The position numbers and the translations under genes are program-made. 64,000 bases of DNA from Escherichia coli. Its GTDB lineage: Bacteria; Pseudomonadota; Gammaproteobacteria; Enterobacterales; Enterobacteriaceae. The notes under the pieces were generated by a model that worked only from the letters and a program-made list of their open reading frames with translations, was not told the origin of the DNA and did not search any database. Below, piece by piece: positions 3,408 through 37,037 of the stretch (its first letter is position 1; every line of letters starts with the position of its first letter). The DNA is taken from assembly GCF_013315695.1 (NCBI RefSeq), contig NZ_CP054353.1. The stretch is one strand, 5' to 3'.

Positions 3408-4502
3408 TTACATTGTGGTTTTCAGTGCGTTATCTGCAGCGTGACGCTCCAGCGCCAGCTCAATCAAACGCGTGATCAGATCGGTGTAACCCAGACCGCT
3501 GGCTTGCCACAACTTCGGATACATACTGATGTTGGTGAAGCCAGGCAGGGTGTTGATCTCGTTGATCACCACTTCGTTCTCTGGGGTTAAAAACACGTCT
3601 ACACGCGCCATGCCTGCGCATCCCAACGTTTGATAGGCCTGAACGGCAATCGCCCGGATCTTATCGTTGATTTCTGGCGCAATGGCTGCCGGAACAACCA
3701 CTTTCGCGCCATCTTCGTCAATGTACTTGGTGTCGTAGGCATAAAAATCGCTGGTTAGTACGATCTCGCCACAGGTGCTGGCTTGCGGATTGTCGTTGCC
3801 CAGAACTGCGCATTCGATCTCACGACCTTTGATCCCTTGCTCAACGATCACTTTATGGTCGAACTCGAACGCCAGATCGACGGCAATTGCGTACTGTTCT
3901 TCACTGGTTACTTTGCTGACACCAACAGAAGAGCCCTGATTAGCCGGTTTTACAAACAGCGGTAACCCCAGTTTAGACTCCACTTCGGCAAAACTGATGT
4001 TGTGACGATTAGCGCGCGTCAGGGTAATAAATGGCGCAATGTTCAGCCCGGCATCGCGCAGCAGACGTTTGGTGACATCTTTATCCATACAGGCCGCTGA
4101 AGCCAGAACATCAGAACCTACAAACGGTAAATTGGCGACCCGCAGCATTCCCTGCAAGGAACCATCTTCGCCCAGCGTACCGTGGACAATCGGGAAAATG
4201 ACATCCACCGTCGGCAACGGCTGACCGTTTTGCGCGTCGATAAGCTGATGTTCATGTTTACCAGGCACCTGCGCAAGGCTGGTCGCCGAAGGGCGCAACG
4301 CAATATGGGCAGGATCGTCTGCATTTAGCAGATAATTGCTGGCATCGCTGACGTGCCATTGCCCTTGTTTATCAATGCCCAGCAGCACAACGTCGAAGCG
4401 ACTTTTATCAATGGCATCGACAATGTTTTTTGCCGATTGCAGAGACACTTCATGTTCCGCTGATTTACCACCAAAAACGATTCCTACCCGCAGTTTTTCC
4501 AT
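3408..4502 (-). CDS. ddlA: D-alanine--D-alanine ligase A
   Basis: 364-aa [27 protein letters not shown]..., ATP-grasp Ddl family. Confidence 0.95.
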
Positions 4503-26604: not shown

Positions 26605-26762
26605 TCCTTGCGTTCTGTAAGCCGGTTCAGGAGGAAATCCTGATCCGGCTATTCCGAAAGTTATCCGCCCCCGTCCTCCTCCCCCAAATATCCTTCAGAT
26701 GATGAGTGATCCTGCATTAGGCTATGGCAAGGTGATCAGATTTTCATCACAGGGGAATTATG

Positions 26763-28577
26763 ATGTTAAATGCATGGCACCTGCCGGTGCCCCCATTTGT
26801 TAAACAAAGCAAAGATCAACTGCTCATTACGCTGTGGCTGACGGGCGAAGACCCACCGCAGCGCATTATGCTGCGTACAGAACACGACAACGAAGAAACG
26901 TCAGTAGCGATGCATAAGCAGCGCAGTCAGCCGCAGCCTGGCGTTACCGCATGGCGGGCGGCGATCGATCTCTCCAGCGGGCAACCTCGGCGGCGTTATA
27001 GTTTCAAATTACTGTGGCACGATCGCCAGCGTTGGTTTACACCGCAGGGCTTCAGCCGAATGCCGCCAGCACGACTGGAGCAGTTTGCTGTCGATGTCCC
27101 GGATATCGGCCCACAATGGGCTGCGGATCAGATTTTTTATCAGATCTTCCCTGATCGTTTCGCCCGTAGTCTTCCTCGTGAAGCTGAACAGGATCATGTT
27201 TATTACCATCACGCAGCCGGACAAGAGATCATATTGCGTGACTGGGATGAACCGGTCACGGCGCAGGCGGGCGGATCAACGTTCTATGGCGGCGATCTGG
27301 ACGGTATCAGCGAAAAACTGCCGTATCTGAAAAAGCTCGGCGTGACGGCGCTGTATCTTAACCCGGTGTTTAAAGCCCCCAGCGTACATAAATACGATAC
27401 AGAGGATTATCGCCACGTCGATCCGCAGTTTGGCGGCGACGGAGCGTTGCTGCGTTTGCGACACCATACGCAGCAGCTGGGAATGCGGCTGGTGCTGGAT
27501 GGCGTGTTTAACCACAGTGGCGATTCCCATGCCTGGTTTGACAGGCACAATCGTGGCACGGGTGGTGCTTGTCACAACCCCGAATCGCCCTGGCGCGACT
27601 GGTACTCGTTTAGTGACGATGGCACGGCGCTCGACTGGCTGGGCTATGCCAGCTTGCCGAAACTGGATTATCAGTCGGAAAGTCTGGTGAATGAAATTTA
27701 TCGCGGGGAAGACAGTATTGTCCGCCACTGGCTGAAAGCGCCGTGGAATATGGACGGCTGGCGGCTGGATGTGGTGCATATGCTGGGGGAAGCGGGTGGG
27801 GCGCGCAATAATTTGCAGCACGTTGCCGGGATCACCGAAGCGGCGAAAGAAACCCAGCCGGAAGCGTATATCGTTGGAGAGCATTTTGGCGATGCACGGC
27901 AATGGTTACAGGCCGATGTGGAAGATGCCGCCATGAACTATCGCGGCTTCACATTCCCGTTGTGGGGATTTCTTGCCAATACCGACATCTCTTATGATCC
28001 GCAGCAAATTGACGCCCAAACCTGTATGGCCTGGATGGATAATTACCGCGCCGGACTTTCTCATCAACAGCAACTGCGTATGTTTAATCAGCTCGATAGC
28101 CACGATACTGCGCGATTTAAAACGCTGCTCGGTCGGGATATTGCGCGCCTGCCGCTGGCGGTGGTCTGGTTGTTCACCTGGCCTGGTGTACCATGCATTT
28201 ATTACGGTGATGAAGTGGGGCTGGATGGTAAAAACGATCCGTTTTGCCGTAAACCGTTCCCCTGGCAGGTGGAAAAGCAGGATACGGCGTTATTCGCGCT
28301 GTACCAGCGAATGATTGCGCTGCGTAAGAAAAGTCAGGCGCTGCGTCGTGGCGGCTGTCAGGTGCTGTATGCGGAAGATAACGTGGTGGTATTTGGCCGC
28401 GTGCTGAATCAGCAGCGTGTACTGGTGGCAATCAACCGTGGAGAAGCCTGTGAAGTGGTGCTACCCGCGTCACCGTTGCTTAATGTTGCGCAATGGCAAC
28501 GCAAAGAAGGCCATGGGCAACTGACAGACGGGATTCTGGCTTTGCCTGCCATTTCGGCTACGGTGTGGATCAACTAA
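26763..28577 (+). CDS. malZ: Maltodextrin glucosidase
   Basis: 604-aa GH13 [18 protein letters not shown]... Confidence 0.95.
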
Positions 28578-28763
28578 AGCATCTGTTTTATTTATTACGT
28601 CGTAGTCACCAGCCCTGACACTACGCAGCGCAAAAAAGCTGCTCAATGTCAGGGCTGAGTTTGTTAAATATTTGTCCCGTTCGATATGAGCGATTTTTGG
28701 TATTCTTTGCCCATGAGGTTATGTACAACATGCTCCAGGATAACCCTGTAGTGGAGCAAAGAT

Positions 28764-30209
28764 ATGACAATTTCAAATTCGAATTTATTGAAACCGTTTA
28801 TTCCTGGTACTGAGTTGCCACCTTTTAAAGAGGATGTTTTTTCTAAAACAGAAGAACAATTTAAAAAAAGCCCCCATGGCAAATTGCTTTTCATTTCCGG
28901 AAATGAAAACTTAGTAAACATTTCAGCGGAAAAAATCGATGAAATAAAAAATAGCAAAGATTTCTTTTCAAATATTGTAAATATAATAATTTTAATCATT
29001 AAGCATCCTGATAAAATTCTGCCCATTCTTCATGGTTGTCCTGCAGAGTCCATCGAACTCATTAAGAATGCGAAACGAACGGGGCAATGGTCATATGAGA
29101 TGACTGATAAGAACGGGCAGAATATTGAAGTGTCCTATATTTTCACTGATACCATAGATGATAAATCTGATGGAAAATTATGCTTAAAAATCTGTAACTC
29201 TTGCAACCAAAATGATTCTAGTACACATGAATATAAAATAGATCATCAACAGTTGAAAAATCACATAAGGCAACTTGAGGAGTGGGCCCTTCTTGAAAAG
29301 TTTTATGATAACAACGCTTATTATTCTAAACGTACAAAACAATTAGAGAAGAAAATTGCCGATGCGGGGTTTATAACAGGGAAGGTTAATGCCGATAACT
29401 TTAATGTAAAAGAGTTTAAAGACGATATAGCCTCGATGCTTTGTGAACAGCCCCCCATGCGTACACACCAGATTTCTTCATCCGGATACTTATCTGCCGA
29501 TAAAGTGCCTGATCTCTATAAGACAAATTTGAAAGACGCGCAGAGAGATCTGAAAACAACACCGGTTGACATCGATGGTGTTAGTCTAAAATCAAAAACT
29601 CGGGAAAAAATTGCGGAAAAAATTGCGAAAAAAACTGAGGAAAAAATTGCGAAACAAAATGCGAAGACCATTGAGGAGAAGAATAGTGAAAAAAACAAGA
29701 AAGAAACAAATCCTGAGGATAATTTTGTCTTAAAATTCTCACCGGACGAAATCAATGAGATGCTCCTGGATTACAGCGATGAAGAACAAAAAAAATTAAG
29801 ACCTTTTTTCACTAGTGATCACATCTATTGTTTGTTTGATGCTTTTAGTCAGGGTTTGCATAATGTTGCTCGTAATGGCAGTCCACGGTATGCAGGTTTA
29901 CTACATCAAATAGCATCCAACTCTGAGATATTACAAGATTTTGATCAACAATTGTTCTGGCGCACGTTTTCAGGAGGAGTCTTCCATCGACGTATCTCTG
30001 TGAACAGCGAGCCAGAAAAGACAGATGTATGGCGATTCAGTACACAATTTGATTTTCCACATATAAATGACAACGGGGAGTTGTCCAGAACGGTACTCAT
30101 GTTCGAGGGGGTTGCTGAAAGCAACTTTAAAGATATCGCCAATCATTCCAGCGAATGTTTTTCTTACAGTTGTTATGCCGCTCCGCTGGATGCGAATGCT
30201 AAAAAATAG
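28764..30209 (+). CDS. Hypothetical 481-aa protein in an AT-rich islet; internal Lys/Glu-rich repeat; C-terminal region with a candidate papain-like (OTU-like) cysteine peptidase Cys motif
   Basis: Long uninterrupted ORF with GGAG 8 bp upstream of the ATG; visibly AT-rich codon usage unlike flanking genes; not part of the K-12 malZ-acpH junction as I recall it; motif SDHIYCLFDAFSQGL (Cys356) and downstream FPHIND (His433); function is inference only. Confidence 0.7.
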   Translation: MTISNSNLLKPFIPGTELPPFKEDVFSKTEEQFKKSPHGKLLFISGNENLVNISAEKIDEIKNSKDFFSNIVNIIILIIKHPDKILPILHGCPAESIELIKNAKRTGQWSYEMTDKNGQNIEVSYIFTDTIDDKSDGKLCLKICNSCNQNDSSTHEYKIDHQQLKNHIRQLEEWALLEKFYDNNAYYSKRTKQLEKKIADAGFITGKVNADNFNVKEFKDDIASMLCEQPPMRTHQISSSGYLSADKVPDLYKTNLKDAQRDLKTTPVDIDGVSLKSKTREKIAEKIAKKTEEKIAKQNAKTIEEKNSEKNKKETNPEDNFVLKFSPDEINEMLLDYSDEEQKKLRPFFTSDHIYCLFDAFSQGLHNVARNGSPRYAGLLHQIASNSEILQDFDQQLFWRTFSGGVFHRRISVNSEPEKTDVWRFSTQFDFPHINDNGELSRTVLMFEGVAESNFKDIANHSSECFSYSCYAAPLDANAKK

Positions 30210-30229
30210 TGACGCCGGAGCTTGAAGTT

Positions 30230-30811
30230 TCAGAGCGCCTTGCGTGACGCCTGCGCCATCATCCGCGGATAAAACTGCCAGAAGCGGGTTTCGAGGGCGG
30301 CATAATGTGCGTTTAAATCGTACCAGGAGTCACGCAGGGCATCCAGACGTGGGCGACGGCTTGCCATGCCGTTTAACACGTTCTGGATGAAATCCATATC
30401 GCGATAGCGCACCAGCCACTGCTCTGACCACAAGTAATTGTTCAGATTGATAAAACGTGGCGGTGAGTCCGGCAAAATCGTCATCACTTGCTCGCGGGCA
30501 TAACAGACAAATTCCTGTAGCGGAAAGTCCGGCGACAGCTGCGACCAGTGGCGGGAAAGAAAGTGATCCCACATGACATCCAGCGTAATAGGCGCAACGC
30601 GGCGCGTTTCACTACGAAACCATTCCCGTGCTTCGCGGACTTCCGGCAGATTGTCGGTTAGTACATCAATGCGCCGATGCATATGAATGCCAGCCACGAC
30701 GTCGGGCGGAAAACTTTCTTCAGGATTTCCGCGTACGAAATCAGCCAGTAAATTGCCGGAAAGCGAGCTTTCCGCGAGATGGGCTAAATGCAGGTGAGCT
30801 AAAAAATTCAT
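30230..30811 (-). CDS. acpH: Acyl carrier protein phosphodiesterase AcpH (YajB)
   Basis: 193-aa [28 protein letters not shown]... Confidence 0.9.
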
Positions 30812-30903
30812 CGATTATATTCTATCCAAAGGGGGGTAAAGGTTGCAGGGAGAGCGCCCCGGCACTAGACTACCCGCCTCTTATTTTAGTCTGAGTCAGT
30901 GTC

Positions 30904-31974
30904 ATGCGCGTTACCGATTTCTCCTTTGAATTGCCCGAATCCCTGATTGCCCACTATCCCATGCCTGAACGCAGTAGCTGTCGTTTACTGTCGCTGGACG
31001 GGCCGACGGGCGCGCTGACGCACGGTACTTTCACCGATTTACTCGATAAGCTCAACCCCGGCGATCTTCTGGTTTTTAATAATACCCGTGTGATCCCGGC
31101 GCGCCTGTTTGGGCGTAAAGCCAGCGGCGGCAAGATTGAAGTGCTGGTTGAGCGTATGCTCGACGACAAACGCATTCTTGCGCATATTCGCGCCTCGAAA
31201 GCGACAAAACCTGGCGCAGAACTGTTGCTGGGCGATGACGAAAGTATTAACGCAACAATGACCGCGCGCCACGGCGCACTGTTTGAAGTCGAATTTAATG
31301 ATGATCGTTCGGTACTGGATATCCTCAACAGCATCGGCCATATGCCGCTGCCGCCGTATATCGACCGTCCGGACGAAGACGCTGACCGCGAACTTTATCA
31401 AACCGTTTATAGCGAAAAACCGGGCGCGGTTGCAGCCCCGACCGCTGGTCTGCATTTTGACGAACCTTTGCTGGAAAAATTACGCGCCAAAGGCGTGGAG
31501 ATGGCGTTTGTCACCCTGCACGTTGGTGCGGGCACCTTCCAGCCGGTGCGCGTCGACACCATTGAAGATCACATCATGCACTCAGAATACGCTGAAGTGC
31601 CGCAGGATGTGGTTGACGCAGTGCTGGCTGCGAAAGCGCGTGGAAATCGGGTGATTGCGGTTGGCACCACCTCTGTTCGCTCGCTTGAGAGCGCGGCCCA
31701 GGCGGCGAAAAACGATCTCATCGAACCGTTCTTTGACGATACCCAAATCTTTATCTATCCCGGCTTCCAGTACAAAGTGGTCGATGCGCTGGTGACTAAC
31801 TTCCACCTGCCGGAATCGACGTTGATTATGCTGGTTTCGGCCTTTGCCGGTTACCAACACACCATGAATGCCTATAAAGCAGCAGTAGAAGAGAAATATC
31901 GCTTTTTTAGTTACGGTGATGCGATGTTTATCACGTACAATCCGCAGGCAATTAATGAGCGCGTCGGGGAGTAA
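30904..31974 (+). CDS. queA: S-adenosylmethionine:tRNA ribosyltransferase-isomerase
   Basis: 356-aa [22 protein letters not shown]... Confidence 0.95.
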
Positions 31975-36520: not shown

Positions 36521-36763
36521 ATGCGCAAAATTACCTCAGTAAGCGTTGGCGAACAATTAGATAGTTTTATTACCCGGATGGTCCAGTCTGGTCGTTATGG
36601 CTCGGCCAGTGAAGTGATGCGTTCAGCGCTTCGTCTATTGGAACAACAAGAATCCCGGGATGAAGCTGTCAGAAATGCAGTTATTGAAGGTCTTGAGAGC
36701 GGTGAAAGTTCGATGACGCTTCGTGATATCGCAGCAGAAAGGAAGCAAAAACATCGTGTATAA
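36521..36763 (+). CDS. ParD-like (RHH/CopG family) type II antitoxin
   Basis: 80-aa protein MRKITSVSVGEQLDSFITRMVQSGRYGSASEVMRSALRLLEQQE...; RBS GGAG upstream; ORF track start at 36401 would run through the secF terminator. Confidence 0.75.
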   Translation: MRKITSVSVGEQLDSFITRMVQSGRYGSASEVMRSALRLLEQQESRDEAVRNAVIEGLESGESSMTLRDIAAERKQKHRV

Positions 36764-37037
36764 GCTTAGCGGAAAAGCTGTTGAAGATTTCAGAGGGATC
36801 TATGACTACACGCTGGGAAAGTTTGGTGAGGAGCAGGCGGATCGCTATACCGACTCTCTCGGCATTTTTTTGGATACACTCTCTCAAATGCCCGAGATTG
36901 GTCAAGACTATGATGCGATTCCAGAGGTAAAGAAGATCGCATTTAGGTTTCACACTGTTTATTACGTTATAAGAGTCGATGACATTCTCATTGCGCGCAT
37001 TCTTCATCAGCTGATGGAACCTCGCCGTCACTGGTAA
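36753..37037 (+). CDS. ParE/RelE-superfamily type II toxin
   Basis: About 94 aa from GTG 36753 ((M)YKLSGKAVEDFRGIYDYTL...FHTVYYVIRVDDILIARILHQLMEP); overlaps the antitoxin stop; start codon uncertain (36723 or 36753). Confidence 0.7.
   Translation: MVYKLSGKAVEDFRGIYDYTLGKFGEEQADRYTDSLGIFLDTLSQMPEIGQDYDAIPEVKKIAFRFHTVYYVIRVDDILIARILHQLMEPRRHW

Follow-up and report, generated by a model that had tools for sequence, protein, structure and literature searches.

A long orphan gene on an AT-rich islet between malZ and acpH in Escherichia coli

The ORFans of Escherichia coli share, as a class, an AT-rich composition, a narrow distribution and a high non-synonymous diversity, yet still behave as coding sequences (Yu & Stoltzfus 2012, PMC3514957), their mean length is about 200 codons (PMC3514957), and they have been reviewed by uz-Zaman & Ochman 2025 (PMC12315717). 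The gene considered here, known in O157:H7 Sakai as ECs_0454, shows the features by which such genes are recognised: no detectable homologue outside the taxon, an AT-rich sequence in which the first and third codon positions are poor in GC, and high non-synonymous diversity, with dN far above that of core genes, combined with a conserved coding capacity and a maintained frame. As in other ORFans, its distribution among strains is patchy. It differs from them in its length (481 codons, where ORFans average about 200), in being carried by about one-fifth of strains from several deep lineages and not by one genome, and in standing alone between two core genes and not within a prophage or a large island. 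At 481 residues, the protein has over twice the average length of E. coli ORFans, which is easier to reconcile with a diverged gene that came from an unsampled source than with a young gene.

Two further kinds of DNA are useful for comparison. The “O-islands”, reportedly described by Perna et al. in 2001, are strain-specific insertions of O157:H7 relative to K-12; the islet that carries the present gene is likewise AT-rich DNA absent from K-12 and found at a conserved backbone position in O157:H7, but it occurs in many other lineages, so that it is not specific to O157, and it bears no phage, IS or integrase signature. In enterobacteria, moreover, H-NS silences AT-rich xenogeneic DNA, and the islet resembles such DNA in having about 36% GC in a genome of 51% GC and in the lack of a strong σ70 consensus promoter upstream of its open reading frame (ORF). 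Since AT-rich xenogeneic DNA in E. coli generally behaves in this way, the islet is probably silenced by H-NS as well, in which case the ORF would be expressed only under particular conditions, from a weak promoter of its own lying behind a terminator-like hairpin.

Our main reading, to which we assign a probability of roughly 70%, is that the islet is an ORFan protein-coding gene on a small, compositionally foreign block of DNA that represents one of two states of the malZ-acpH junction. Taken by itself, this is one more uncharacterised E. coli ORFan and matters little. It is, however, a convenient case in which to ask how bacterial orphan genes originate and why they are retained: the gene is long and single-copy, its site between core genes has two clean states, about 1,100 complete genomes carry it, its deficit of truncations can be measured despite near-neutral amino-acid change, and sister genera have a peroxiredoxin gene at the same site. 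Should a function be found, notably one linked to pathogenic lineages or to phage resistance, the gene would stand for a new protein family.

The malZ-acpH junction and its two states

In MG1655 (K-12), malZ and acpH are convergent and separated by 4 bp, in agreement with the gap of a few bp given in an earlier note on this DNA, which was made from the sequence alone. In the window (the whole 64-kb stretch of DNA analysed here), the same junction is filled by a 1,652-bp AT-rich stretch (28578..30229, given without strand), which comprises all the DNA between the last base of the malZ stop codon at 28577 and the acpH stop codon, beginning at 30230 on the minus strand; empty-site E. coli have only CGTT or CGTC there. 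The insertion thus lies exactly between the two stop codons, as the earlier note had described for its approximately 1.65 kb. Its GC content of 31–41% (0.31–0.41 in 300-bp windows over 28750–30099) compares with 0.51–0.59 in the flanks, and it includes the lowest-GC kilobase within the window, whose overall GC is 51%. The contrast with malZ, which had been proposed as a check, is equally plain: the ORF has 36.5% GC and a GC3 of 34%, malZ 55% and 59%.

The islet holds a single long ORF (28764..30209, plus strand) that starts with ATG, encodes 481 residues and is annotated “hypothetical protein”; as already noticed, it has a good ribosome-binding site, GGAG at 28753..28756 (plus strand), 7 nt 5′ of the ATG and kept in all six alleles aligned. 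Upstream lies a single-copy, islet-specific 5′ spacer of 186 bp (28578..28763, plus strand; 43% GC), whose mean pairwise divergence of 2.3% makes it better conserved than the synonymous sites of the ORF. Within this spacer, an imperfect hairpin (28610..28657, plus strand) with 20-nt arms that are 85% complementary and an 8-nt loop is followed by AGTTTGTT; the fold of 28570–28770 reaches -62.7 kcal/mol (z = -4.0), and the stem is kept in six alleles. Judged by its sequence, this hairpin probably acts as a terminator and keeps transcription of malZ from running on into the ORF. The 3′ spacer between the stop codons of the ORF and acpH is only 20 bp long (30210..30229, given without strand) and contains no terminator-like hairpin, and no Rfam family matches at the islet. 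On the other side of this spacer, the last codon and stop of acpH (30230..30235, minus strand) are haplotype-specific, reading CTC TGA in every islet allele, TTA TAA in every empty allele, and CTG TGA in Salmonella and Enterobacter.

None of the classical marks of a genomic island or integrative element is found at the islet, neither an integrase or transposase nor terminal inverted repeats, a target-site duplication, flanking direct repeats, or a tRNA or att site, and the remark that no mobility gene accompanies the ORF therefore holds. A foreign origin is suggested by two lines of evidence, composition and distribution. The islet DNA would have come from an unsampled donor and, given the lack of integrase, repeats and tRNA, would have been captured by illegitimate recombination; since then it may have been inherited vertically and reshuffled by homologous recombination acting through the core genes on either side.

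With regard to distribution, 1,127 of 5,426 complete E. coli genomes (21%) carry the islet and 4,295 have a contiguous empty junction, so that the islet does not have the universal presence in the species that would have undercut a horizontal origin. Besides O157:H7 Sakai, in which the gene is again listed as a “hypothetical protein”, carriers include O55:H7 and Shigella dysenteriae, and islet strains come from sources as varied as human stool, clinical samples, dog and chicken. Islet alleles differ by up to about 10% and their tree roughly follows that of the flanks, which together indicate that the islet is old within E. coli; islet and empty site are two long-standing alternative states of the junction. 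The proposal of a horizontally acquired islet is thus borne out in its foreign composition and in its restriction to a fifth of complete E. coli genomes, with no detection in representative genomes of other species (two narrow pattern scans), in phages or in real plasmids, but the acquisition has to be regarded as old rather than recent.

The locus has been remodelled in related genera too, since a peroxiredoxin gene occupies the same position in Salmonella, Enterobacter and Klebsiella. In Salmonella it lies between acpH and malZ, and the order across the three genera is acpH, peroxiredoxin and then convergent malZ or other genes. Like the islet, the peroxiredoxin gene adjoins the acpH stop codon; unlike the islet ORF, it is on the opposite strand, unrelated in sequence, normal in GC and conserved across genera. 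It has been lost from this site in both E. coli haplotypes, and neither tblastn nor blastn finds a remnant of it within the islet. Two apparent peculiarities of the junction were set aside. A “third allele” of 1.1 kb in strain HS-02, which contains no gene, arose from faulty assembly or base calling and consists of poly-A sequence with 12% GC whose first 51 nt are the left end of the islet with bases dropped. The malZ gene of islet strains differs in length by one codon from that of K-12, but independently of the islet, as empty-site strains are also annotated with 605 aa.

Selection on the reading frame

A stop-free run of 481 codons would arise at random with a probability of about 1e-16, estimated by us from a stop-codon frequency of about 7.5% at the same base composition. 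The ORF is intact at 17 of the 20 loci examined; of the other three, one has a frameshift, one an IS1 insertion (H12) and one a deletion that extends into malZ. Among 13 unique alleles, which segregate 46 synonymous and 110 non-synonymous mutations, not a single nonsense mutation is seen where 6–11 are expected under neutrality. All indels are multiples of 12 nt and keep the frame, only one frameshift occurs despite many A-runs, and the frame stays open in diverged alleles. Residue types, furthermore, are ranked as in a folded protein, with W, Y, C, L and F most conserved and D, A, T and P least, and the eight cysteines are essentially all invariant among 143 unique full-length variants. Taken together, the proportion of intact loci, the missing nonsense mutations, the 12-nt indels and the ranking of residues show that the ORF is a real gene kept open by selection, and the conservation of its aromatic and hydrophobic residues and of all eight cysteines shows that its product behaves like a folded protein.

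Selection on the amino-acid sequence is, in contrast, weak. The dN/dS of the ORF is about 0.6–0.9 (pairwise range 0.3–1.7) and similar in every domain, against 0.02–0.08 for malZ and 0–0.06 for acpH in the same strains, and dN reaches 0.01–0.05 compared with 0.001–0.009 in the flanks, so that the protein evolves about ten times faster than its neighbours. Synonymous divergence, on the other hand, is lower in the islet (0.02–0.08) than in the flanks (0.08–0.24), a difference that weighs against our main reading. With a dN/dS so near to 1, much of the protein could be neutral, and one may ask whether the gene is a functionless passenger, once active in its donor and by now on its way to becoming a pseudogene in E. 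coli through drift. The evenness of dN/dS along the gene is what such drift would leave, non-synonymous divergence (about 2.7%) is roughly equal to that of the non-coding 5′ spacer (2.3%), disrupted copies exist, and 79% of genomes do without the islet with no obvious consequence. Drift does not, however, account for the deficit of nonsense mutations and frameshifts, for length changes that are in frame without exception, for a conservation ranking typical of a folded protein, or for an ORF that is still intact in lineages whose flanks have diverged to a dS of 0.1–0.2. We therefore regard the passenger as unlikely and retain the reading of a maintained ORFan gene.

Variation within the protein is greatest (pN/pS 1.7) where it is encoded by a 12-nt in-frame tandem repeat (29594..29677, plus strand) that specifies EKIA, KKTE and EKTA units; its copy number differs among strains, which gives proteins of 469–493 aa in steps of 4 aa. 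Selection against truncation, high non-synonymous diversity and this charged linker of variable length together lead us to guess that an accessory protein engaged with a changing partner, be it phage, competitor or host, suits the data better than a housekeeping enzyme.

The protein and its candidate relatives

Searches with the protein return little beyond itself. Among 1.84 billion representative proteins there is one full-length cluster, entirely from E. coli and Shigella, whose named members are all “hypothetical protein [Escherichia coli / Shigella]”, and other matches are fragments of that cluster. No relative was found in other species among 100,044 species-representative genomes, scanned narrowly with two peptide patterns and one degenerate DNA pattern, nor in phages and IMG/VR viral contigs; among plasmids there is no true match, the sole two “plasmid” matches being 4.9-Mb chromosomes. 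Pfam, NCBIfam, PHROGs and PDB sequences offer no family for it, and PADLOC no defence-system model, with a single match to Cas7e (E 0.14) falling on the low-complexity K/E region. By these comparisons, the product has no detectable relative outside E. coli and Shigella, and no domain in it can be recognised as that of a peptidase, an OTU protein, a toxin, a defence system or a phage. The sole distant match, a 947-aa protein with PKD-like repeats (P0139), aligns with residues 101–158 at about 31% identity over 58 aa, with an E of 6e-7 that is summed over three near-identical repeats; we treat this relationship as unconfirmed, since Pfam reports no PKD match.

Low-confidence predictions suggest a rough layout of a helical N-terminal part, a beta-rich region at about 105–157, helices at 161–265, a variable charged helix at 277–311 and a C-terminal alpha/beta part at 321–481. 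This modular build, together with a polar N-terminus that, as read from the sequence, has no acidic residue among its first 16 positions, would suit a secreted or injected effector, of type III or another kind, that is not a clan CA peptidase, and so would the fast evolution of the ORF and its place on an AT-rich single-gene islet in O157:H7 and O55:H7. Several observations nevertheless make such an effector very unlikely: the carriers come from varied sources, the ORF is not part of a prophage or of a known effector locus and has no chaperone gene nearby, none of the known effector families shows similarity among the 1.84 billion representative proteins, and there are eight conserved cysteines.

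The earlier note had gone further and read the C-terminal part as an OTU-like cysteine peptidase, or one of another clan CA type, in which the nucleophile Cys356 would be joined in the active site by His433 with Asn435 or Asp436, and thus as a possible delivered effector or toxin. The motifs it quoted, SDHIYCLFDAFSQGL with Cys356, FPHIND with His433 and REKIAEKIAKKTEEKIAKQNAK, are all present in the protein. In OTU peptidases the Cys loop follows D-G-x-C-[LF]-[FY]-x-[AS], in which the Asp precedes the Cys by three positions, and the catalytic His lies in an invariant H-[YF]-[DN] motif. The ORF has Cys-L-F-x-A-x-S and a downstream H-x-N in common with OTU and other clan CA peptidases (YopT/C58, Cif and others): CLFDAFS, starting at Cys356, resembles CLF[RH]A[LI]S of the OTU loop, and His433-Ile-Asn resembles the His motif. 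Cys356 and Asn435 are invariant in the 143 variants, and in low-confidence secondary structure a helix begins close to Cys356 and a beta-strand ends at His433, an arrangement that may be compatible with a papain-like fold.

Other observations speak against a peptidase. In S-D-H-I-Y-C-L-F-D-A-F-S, the D-G-N expected before the Cys is replaced by H-I-Y, the Asp sits four residues before Cys356 instead of three, and the 77 aa between Cys356 and His433 are fewer than in OTU domains. His433 is Tyr in 4 of the 143 unique full-length variants (P0023, P0144, P0146 and P0151, on at least 11 contigs), including intact alleles, and Asp436 is freely D or E (74/69). Conservation covers all cysteines and does not single out Cys356 as a nucleophile, and the C-terminal domain, with a pN/pS of 0.44–0.73, shows no stronger constraint than the other regions. 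The profile search that had been suggested, for OTU (PF02338) and clan CA models, gives no peptidase at E≤10 in Pfam with either the full protein or the C-terminal 162 aa, and residues 320–481 match no family at all (hmmscan); PDB sequences (phmmer, E≤10) and NCBIfam contain no cysteine peptidase match either. AlphaFold2 gives a pLDDT of 35 for the full protein, run with 18 near-identical homologues, and 48 for residues 320–481, values at which the models do not allow the adjacency of Cys356 and His433 to be judged, and the best Foldseek match of this poor C-terminal model in the PDB (E 0.18, TM 0.25) is not to a peptidase. No secretion system, chaperone or partner gene adjoins the ORF. The peptidase is thus highly improbable, and this functional interpretation of the earlier note is not upheld; at the low pLDDT of the models, some remote homology below HMMER’s reach may exist.

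A further weak resemblance concerns residues 402–445, which might be taken for a degenerate UBC/E2-variant-like module without the catalytic cysteine. In the PDB, phmmer aligns FSGGVFHRRISV..PEKTDVWRFSTQFDFPHINDNGELS to the E2 core YEGGxF...YP..PPK..F.T.I.HPN...G.VC (5knl_C), and a small E2 HMM scores 9.6 bits, as high as none of 1,000 shuffles, in a comparison for which the family was chosen before shuffling and which is uncorrected for that choice. The database-wide E of 0.89 (PDB phmmer) is nevertheless at chance level, the hhalign probability is 2.4%, and Pfam UQ_con (PF00179) is absent even at E≤10. Within the alignment, HPN becomes FPH, the cysteine position is taken by Ser441, and nothing aligns with the elements that should precede beta-3 of the E2 fold; a PR/SET-domain match that is just as weak covers the same residues, as happens with chance matches. 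Both matches are at chance level given the number of families searched, which makes the odds of an E2-like module extremely remote.

Coming back to the maintained ORFan gene, a more specific and rather unlikely version would have the ECs_0454 protein found a new family whose fold is either new or too diverged to be recognised from sequence. Its conserved Cys and His residues would act, by thiol- or metal-dependent chemistry, on a target from host, phage or competitor, while selection keeps the gene intact, the surface diversifies and the charged linker varies in length. Such a family could, as a special case, conceal a papain-like or UBC-like core. As for the conserved Cys and His residues themselves (H90/C92, C140/C144/C147, H353/C356 and H461/C465/C470), our guess is that a role as metal or structural ligands is no less likely for them than one in a Cys-His catalytic dyad.

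The malZ-acpH junction and its two states

In the window, malZ (26760-28577, + strand) and acpH (30230-30811, - strand) can be read from the sequence as ORFs whose stop codons are separated by 1,652 bp, and this space, the islet (28578-30229), consists of AT-rich DNA with one long ORF (28764-30209, + strand, 481 aa), preceded by a ribosome-binding site, GGAG, 7 nt 5' of its ATG. GC across this orphan ORF drops to 0.31-0.41, both flanks lying at 0.51-0.59, and the islet is the kilobase of lowest GC in the entire 64-kb window; compared with malZ, as the earlier note had proposed, the ORF has a GC content of 36.5% versus 55% (GC3 34% versus 59%). The two convergent genes lie 4 bp apart in K-12 MG1655, where that note had given a gap of only a few bp, and its observation, including the exact fit of the AT-rich DNA between the stop codons, the good ribosome-binding site and the quoted motifs with Cys356 and His433, is confirmed in every detail.

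Among 5,426 complete E. coli genomes, megablast found the islet in 1,127, at 90-100% identity and always chromosomal and single-copy, and the reciprocal search found the contiguous K-12 empty junction in 4,295. The site is therefore essentially two-state (~21% islet, ~79% empty), and the islet is not universal in the species. Carriers include O157:H7, O55:H7, O169:H41 and many human and animal isolates; the Sakai (O157:H7) annotation of the ORF is ECs_0454, "hypothetical protein", and some protein records of the family carry a Shigella dysenteriae label. An apparent third state in strain HS-02 (NZ_CP172818.1; fetched locus L010, 2501-3612), 1.1 kb long, poly-A-rich and with 12% GC, was rejected as an artefact: its first 51 nt are the left end of the islet with bases dropped, acpH is annotated there with a 15-aa extension, and the sequence seems to reflect faulty base calling or assembly across the islet rather than real variation.

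The 5' spacer (28578-28763, 186 bp), islet-specific and single-copy, holds a conserved hairpin (20-nt arms) with T-rich sequence on its 3' side, plausibly a malZ terminator. No consensus sigma-70 promoter was found upstream of the ORF, and neither terminal repeats nor a target-site duplication nor RNA families were found at the islet. A 13-nt direct repeat, GTGACGCCGGAGC at 30209-30221 just past the ORF stop and GTGACGCCTGCGC at 30244-30256 within the 3' end of acpH, may be left over from the joining event or may have arisen by chance. The islet DNA was probably acquired through illegitimate recombination, its donor being unsampled, and its gene would be silenced by H-NS and expressed from its own promoter behind the terminator-like hairpin.

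A fast-evolving gene restricted to E. coli

The ORF is intact at 17 of the 20 loci examined; the others carry a frameshift, an IS1 insertion (strain WCHEC96200, NZ_CP022229.3 3312676-3315114, islet search match H12) and a deletion fusing malZ to the ORF 3' end. The deletion, in O55:H7 USDA5905 (locus L002, 2594-4334), removed the malZ 3' end and the first ~three quarters of the ORF, leaving both as pseudogenes fused head to tail. Among 14 intact alleles (13 unique), 46 synonymous and 110 non-synonymous mutations segregate, and no nonsense mutation was seen versus 6-11 expected under neutrality, an expectation calibrated on the synonymous count. Protein length ranges from 469 to 493 aa, all of this variation coming from in-frame 12-nt repeat units in a K/E-rich segment. 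Among 143 unique full-length variants, conservation by residue type is highest for W, Y, C, L and F and lowest for D, A, T and P, the signature of a folded protein. Given intact frames, the nonsense deficit, in-frame length changes and this conservation ranking, the ORF is a real gene selected against truncation, with most side chains weakly constrained. Its omega, from the segregating mutations, is ~0.6-0.9, depending on the assumed transition bias, and pairwise dN/dS in the same strains is 0.3-1.7, versus 0.02-0.08 for malZ and 0-0.06 for acpH; relaxed constraint is spread across all regions, with a maximum in the repeat segment (pN/pS 1.7).

A HMMER search of 1.84 billion representative proteins returned one full-length cluster and fragments of the same protein, all named members being labelled "hypothetical protein" and assigned to E. 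coli, Shigella or Escherichia sp. The sole distant match is a metagenomic PKD-repeat protein of 947 aa (P0139), three near-identical PKD-like repeats of which align to the beta-rich residues 101-158 (29064-29237) at ~31% identity over 58 aa, with a whole-protein E-value of 6e-7; no PKD domain is listed by Pfam. Pfam, NCBIfam, PADLOC, PHROGs and PDB sequences gave no meaningful match, nor did phage genomes or IMG/VR, and two "plasmid" matches turned out to be 4.9-Mb chromosomes. Two pattern scans of 100,044 species-representative genomes also gave no match; they used only a few peptide or DNA patterns and are narrower than the protein search.

Together, these data show that the gene is real, confined to E. 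coli and fast-evolving, that it lies on DNA of foreign composition and that its product contains no recognisable domain. Such an evolutionary profile has been reported for E. coli ORFans (lineage-restricted genes without homologues outside their taxon) as a class (PMC3514957), and the islet gene is an ordinary member of it, although the average ORFan there is less than half as long. It is of value mainly as a clean case in which to study ORFan biology; an accessory role in some interaction where amino-acid change is tolerated or favoured is our guess.

The C-terminal region and the peptidase reading

The earlier note had read the C-terminal part as an OTU/papain-like (clan CA) cysteine peptidase with Cys356 as nucleophile, prompted by a short CLFxAxS motif, which we take to agree with OTU Cys loops and which is the only point in favour of this reading. 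The D-G-N found ahead of the cysteine in OTU proteins is missing before Cys356, four full-length variants, present on at least 11 contigs, have Tyr in place of His433, and D and E are about equally frequent at position 436 among the 143 variants. Neither the suggested profile searches (Pfam, full protein, E<=10) nor PDB sequence searches (E<=10) returned OTU or any other peptidase, and Pfam gave no family whatsoever for the C-terminal 162 residues alone. The AlphaFold2 models (full-length, pLDDT 35; C-terminal domain, pLDDT 48) are too poor to place Cys356 relative to His433, and Foldseek run on the latter model yielded noise. Conservation does not single out Cys356, since six of the eight cysteines are invariant and the other two vary in single sequences only, which fits a shared structural or metal-binding function at least as well as the presence of a single nucleophile. 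On this sequence evidence an OTU/papain-like peptidase is very improbable and the functional label is unsupported; metal or structural ligands would be our guess for the conserved Cys and His residues.

The E2 ubiquitin-conjugating core (GGxF...F.T...P....NGE) gives a weak alignment with residues 402-458 (29967-30137), in which Ser441 takes the place of the catalytic Cys, and a small E2 HMM scores 9.6 bits, exceeding 1,000 shuffles. This E2-like identity was rejected, given a PDB-wide E-value of 0.89, an hhalign probability of 2.4%, no report of Pfam UQ_con and an equally weak PR/SET domain match over the same residues; the resemblance is regarded as chance.

History of the locus and neighbouring accessory DNA

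All empty alleles read TAA-CGT[TC]-TTATAA, acpH ending in Leu TTA and stop TAA, whereas all islet alleles end in GAAGTT-TCAGAG, acpH ending in CTC TGA: three differences in 6 nt (30230-30235 in the window, 3838-3843 in locus L003), with no fixed difference in the next 30 nt. The outgroup ends, CTG TGA in Salmonella and Enterobacter and CTG TAA in Klebsiella, resemble the islet haplotype more than the empty one, which, as far as these termini tell, argues against a simple recent insertion into a K-12-like site. In these genera, whose loci are chromosome fragments mislabelled as plasmids, a 200-aa peroxiredoxin gene lies directly downstream of acpH (Salmonella, L032 4292-4894, between acpH and malZ; Enterobacter, L033 4210-4812, and Klebsiella, L034 4210-4812, next to acpH). 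It is missing from this site in both E. coli haplotypes, with no trace within the islet, and the junction is therefore a remodelled locus. Taken together, the E. coli lineage lost the peroxiredoxin gene from this site, two alternative junctions have long coexisted, and homologous recombination through malZ and acpH can carry either state between strains.

Islet and flank trees are broadly congruent: islet-bearing lineages form several deep clades, A/B1-like empty strains are nested among them, and a more divergent empty strain labelled ST80, presumably B2-like, branches outside most islet clades. Total nucleotide diversity is similar in islet and flanks (~3%, 15 loci); synonymous divergence in malZ and acpH is 2-4 times that of the islet, a gap to which a younger islet, mutation biased towards AT and the history of recombination could each contribute.

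Another small accessory islet, 6 kb downstream between secF and yajD (36521-37037), holds a ParD/ParE-like antitoxin-toxin pair, equivalent to Sakai ECs_0461/ECs_0462; at ten E. coli loci (L022-L031) the pair is absent and only ~130 bp lie there. The acpH-queA intergenic region (30812-30903) is 92 bp long both in the window and in K-12 but reaches 218-295 bp in several strains (e.g. L007 4761-4978, L009 4736-5030), and a nucleotide-diversity spike at 30751-30908 arises because this length varies; the extra length is probably an inserted repeat element.
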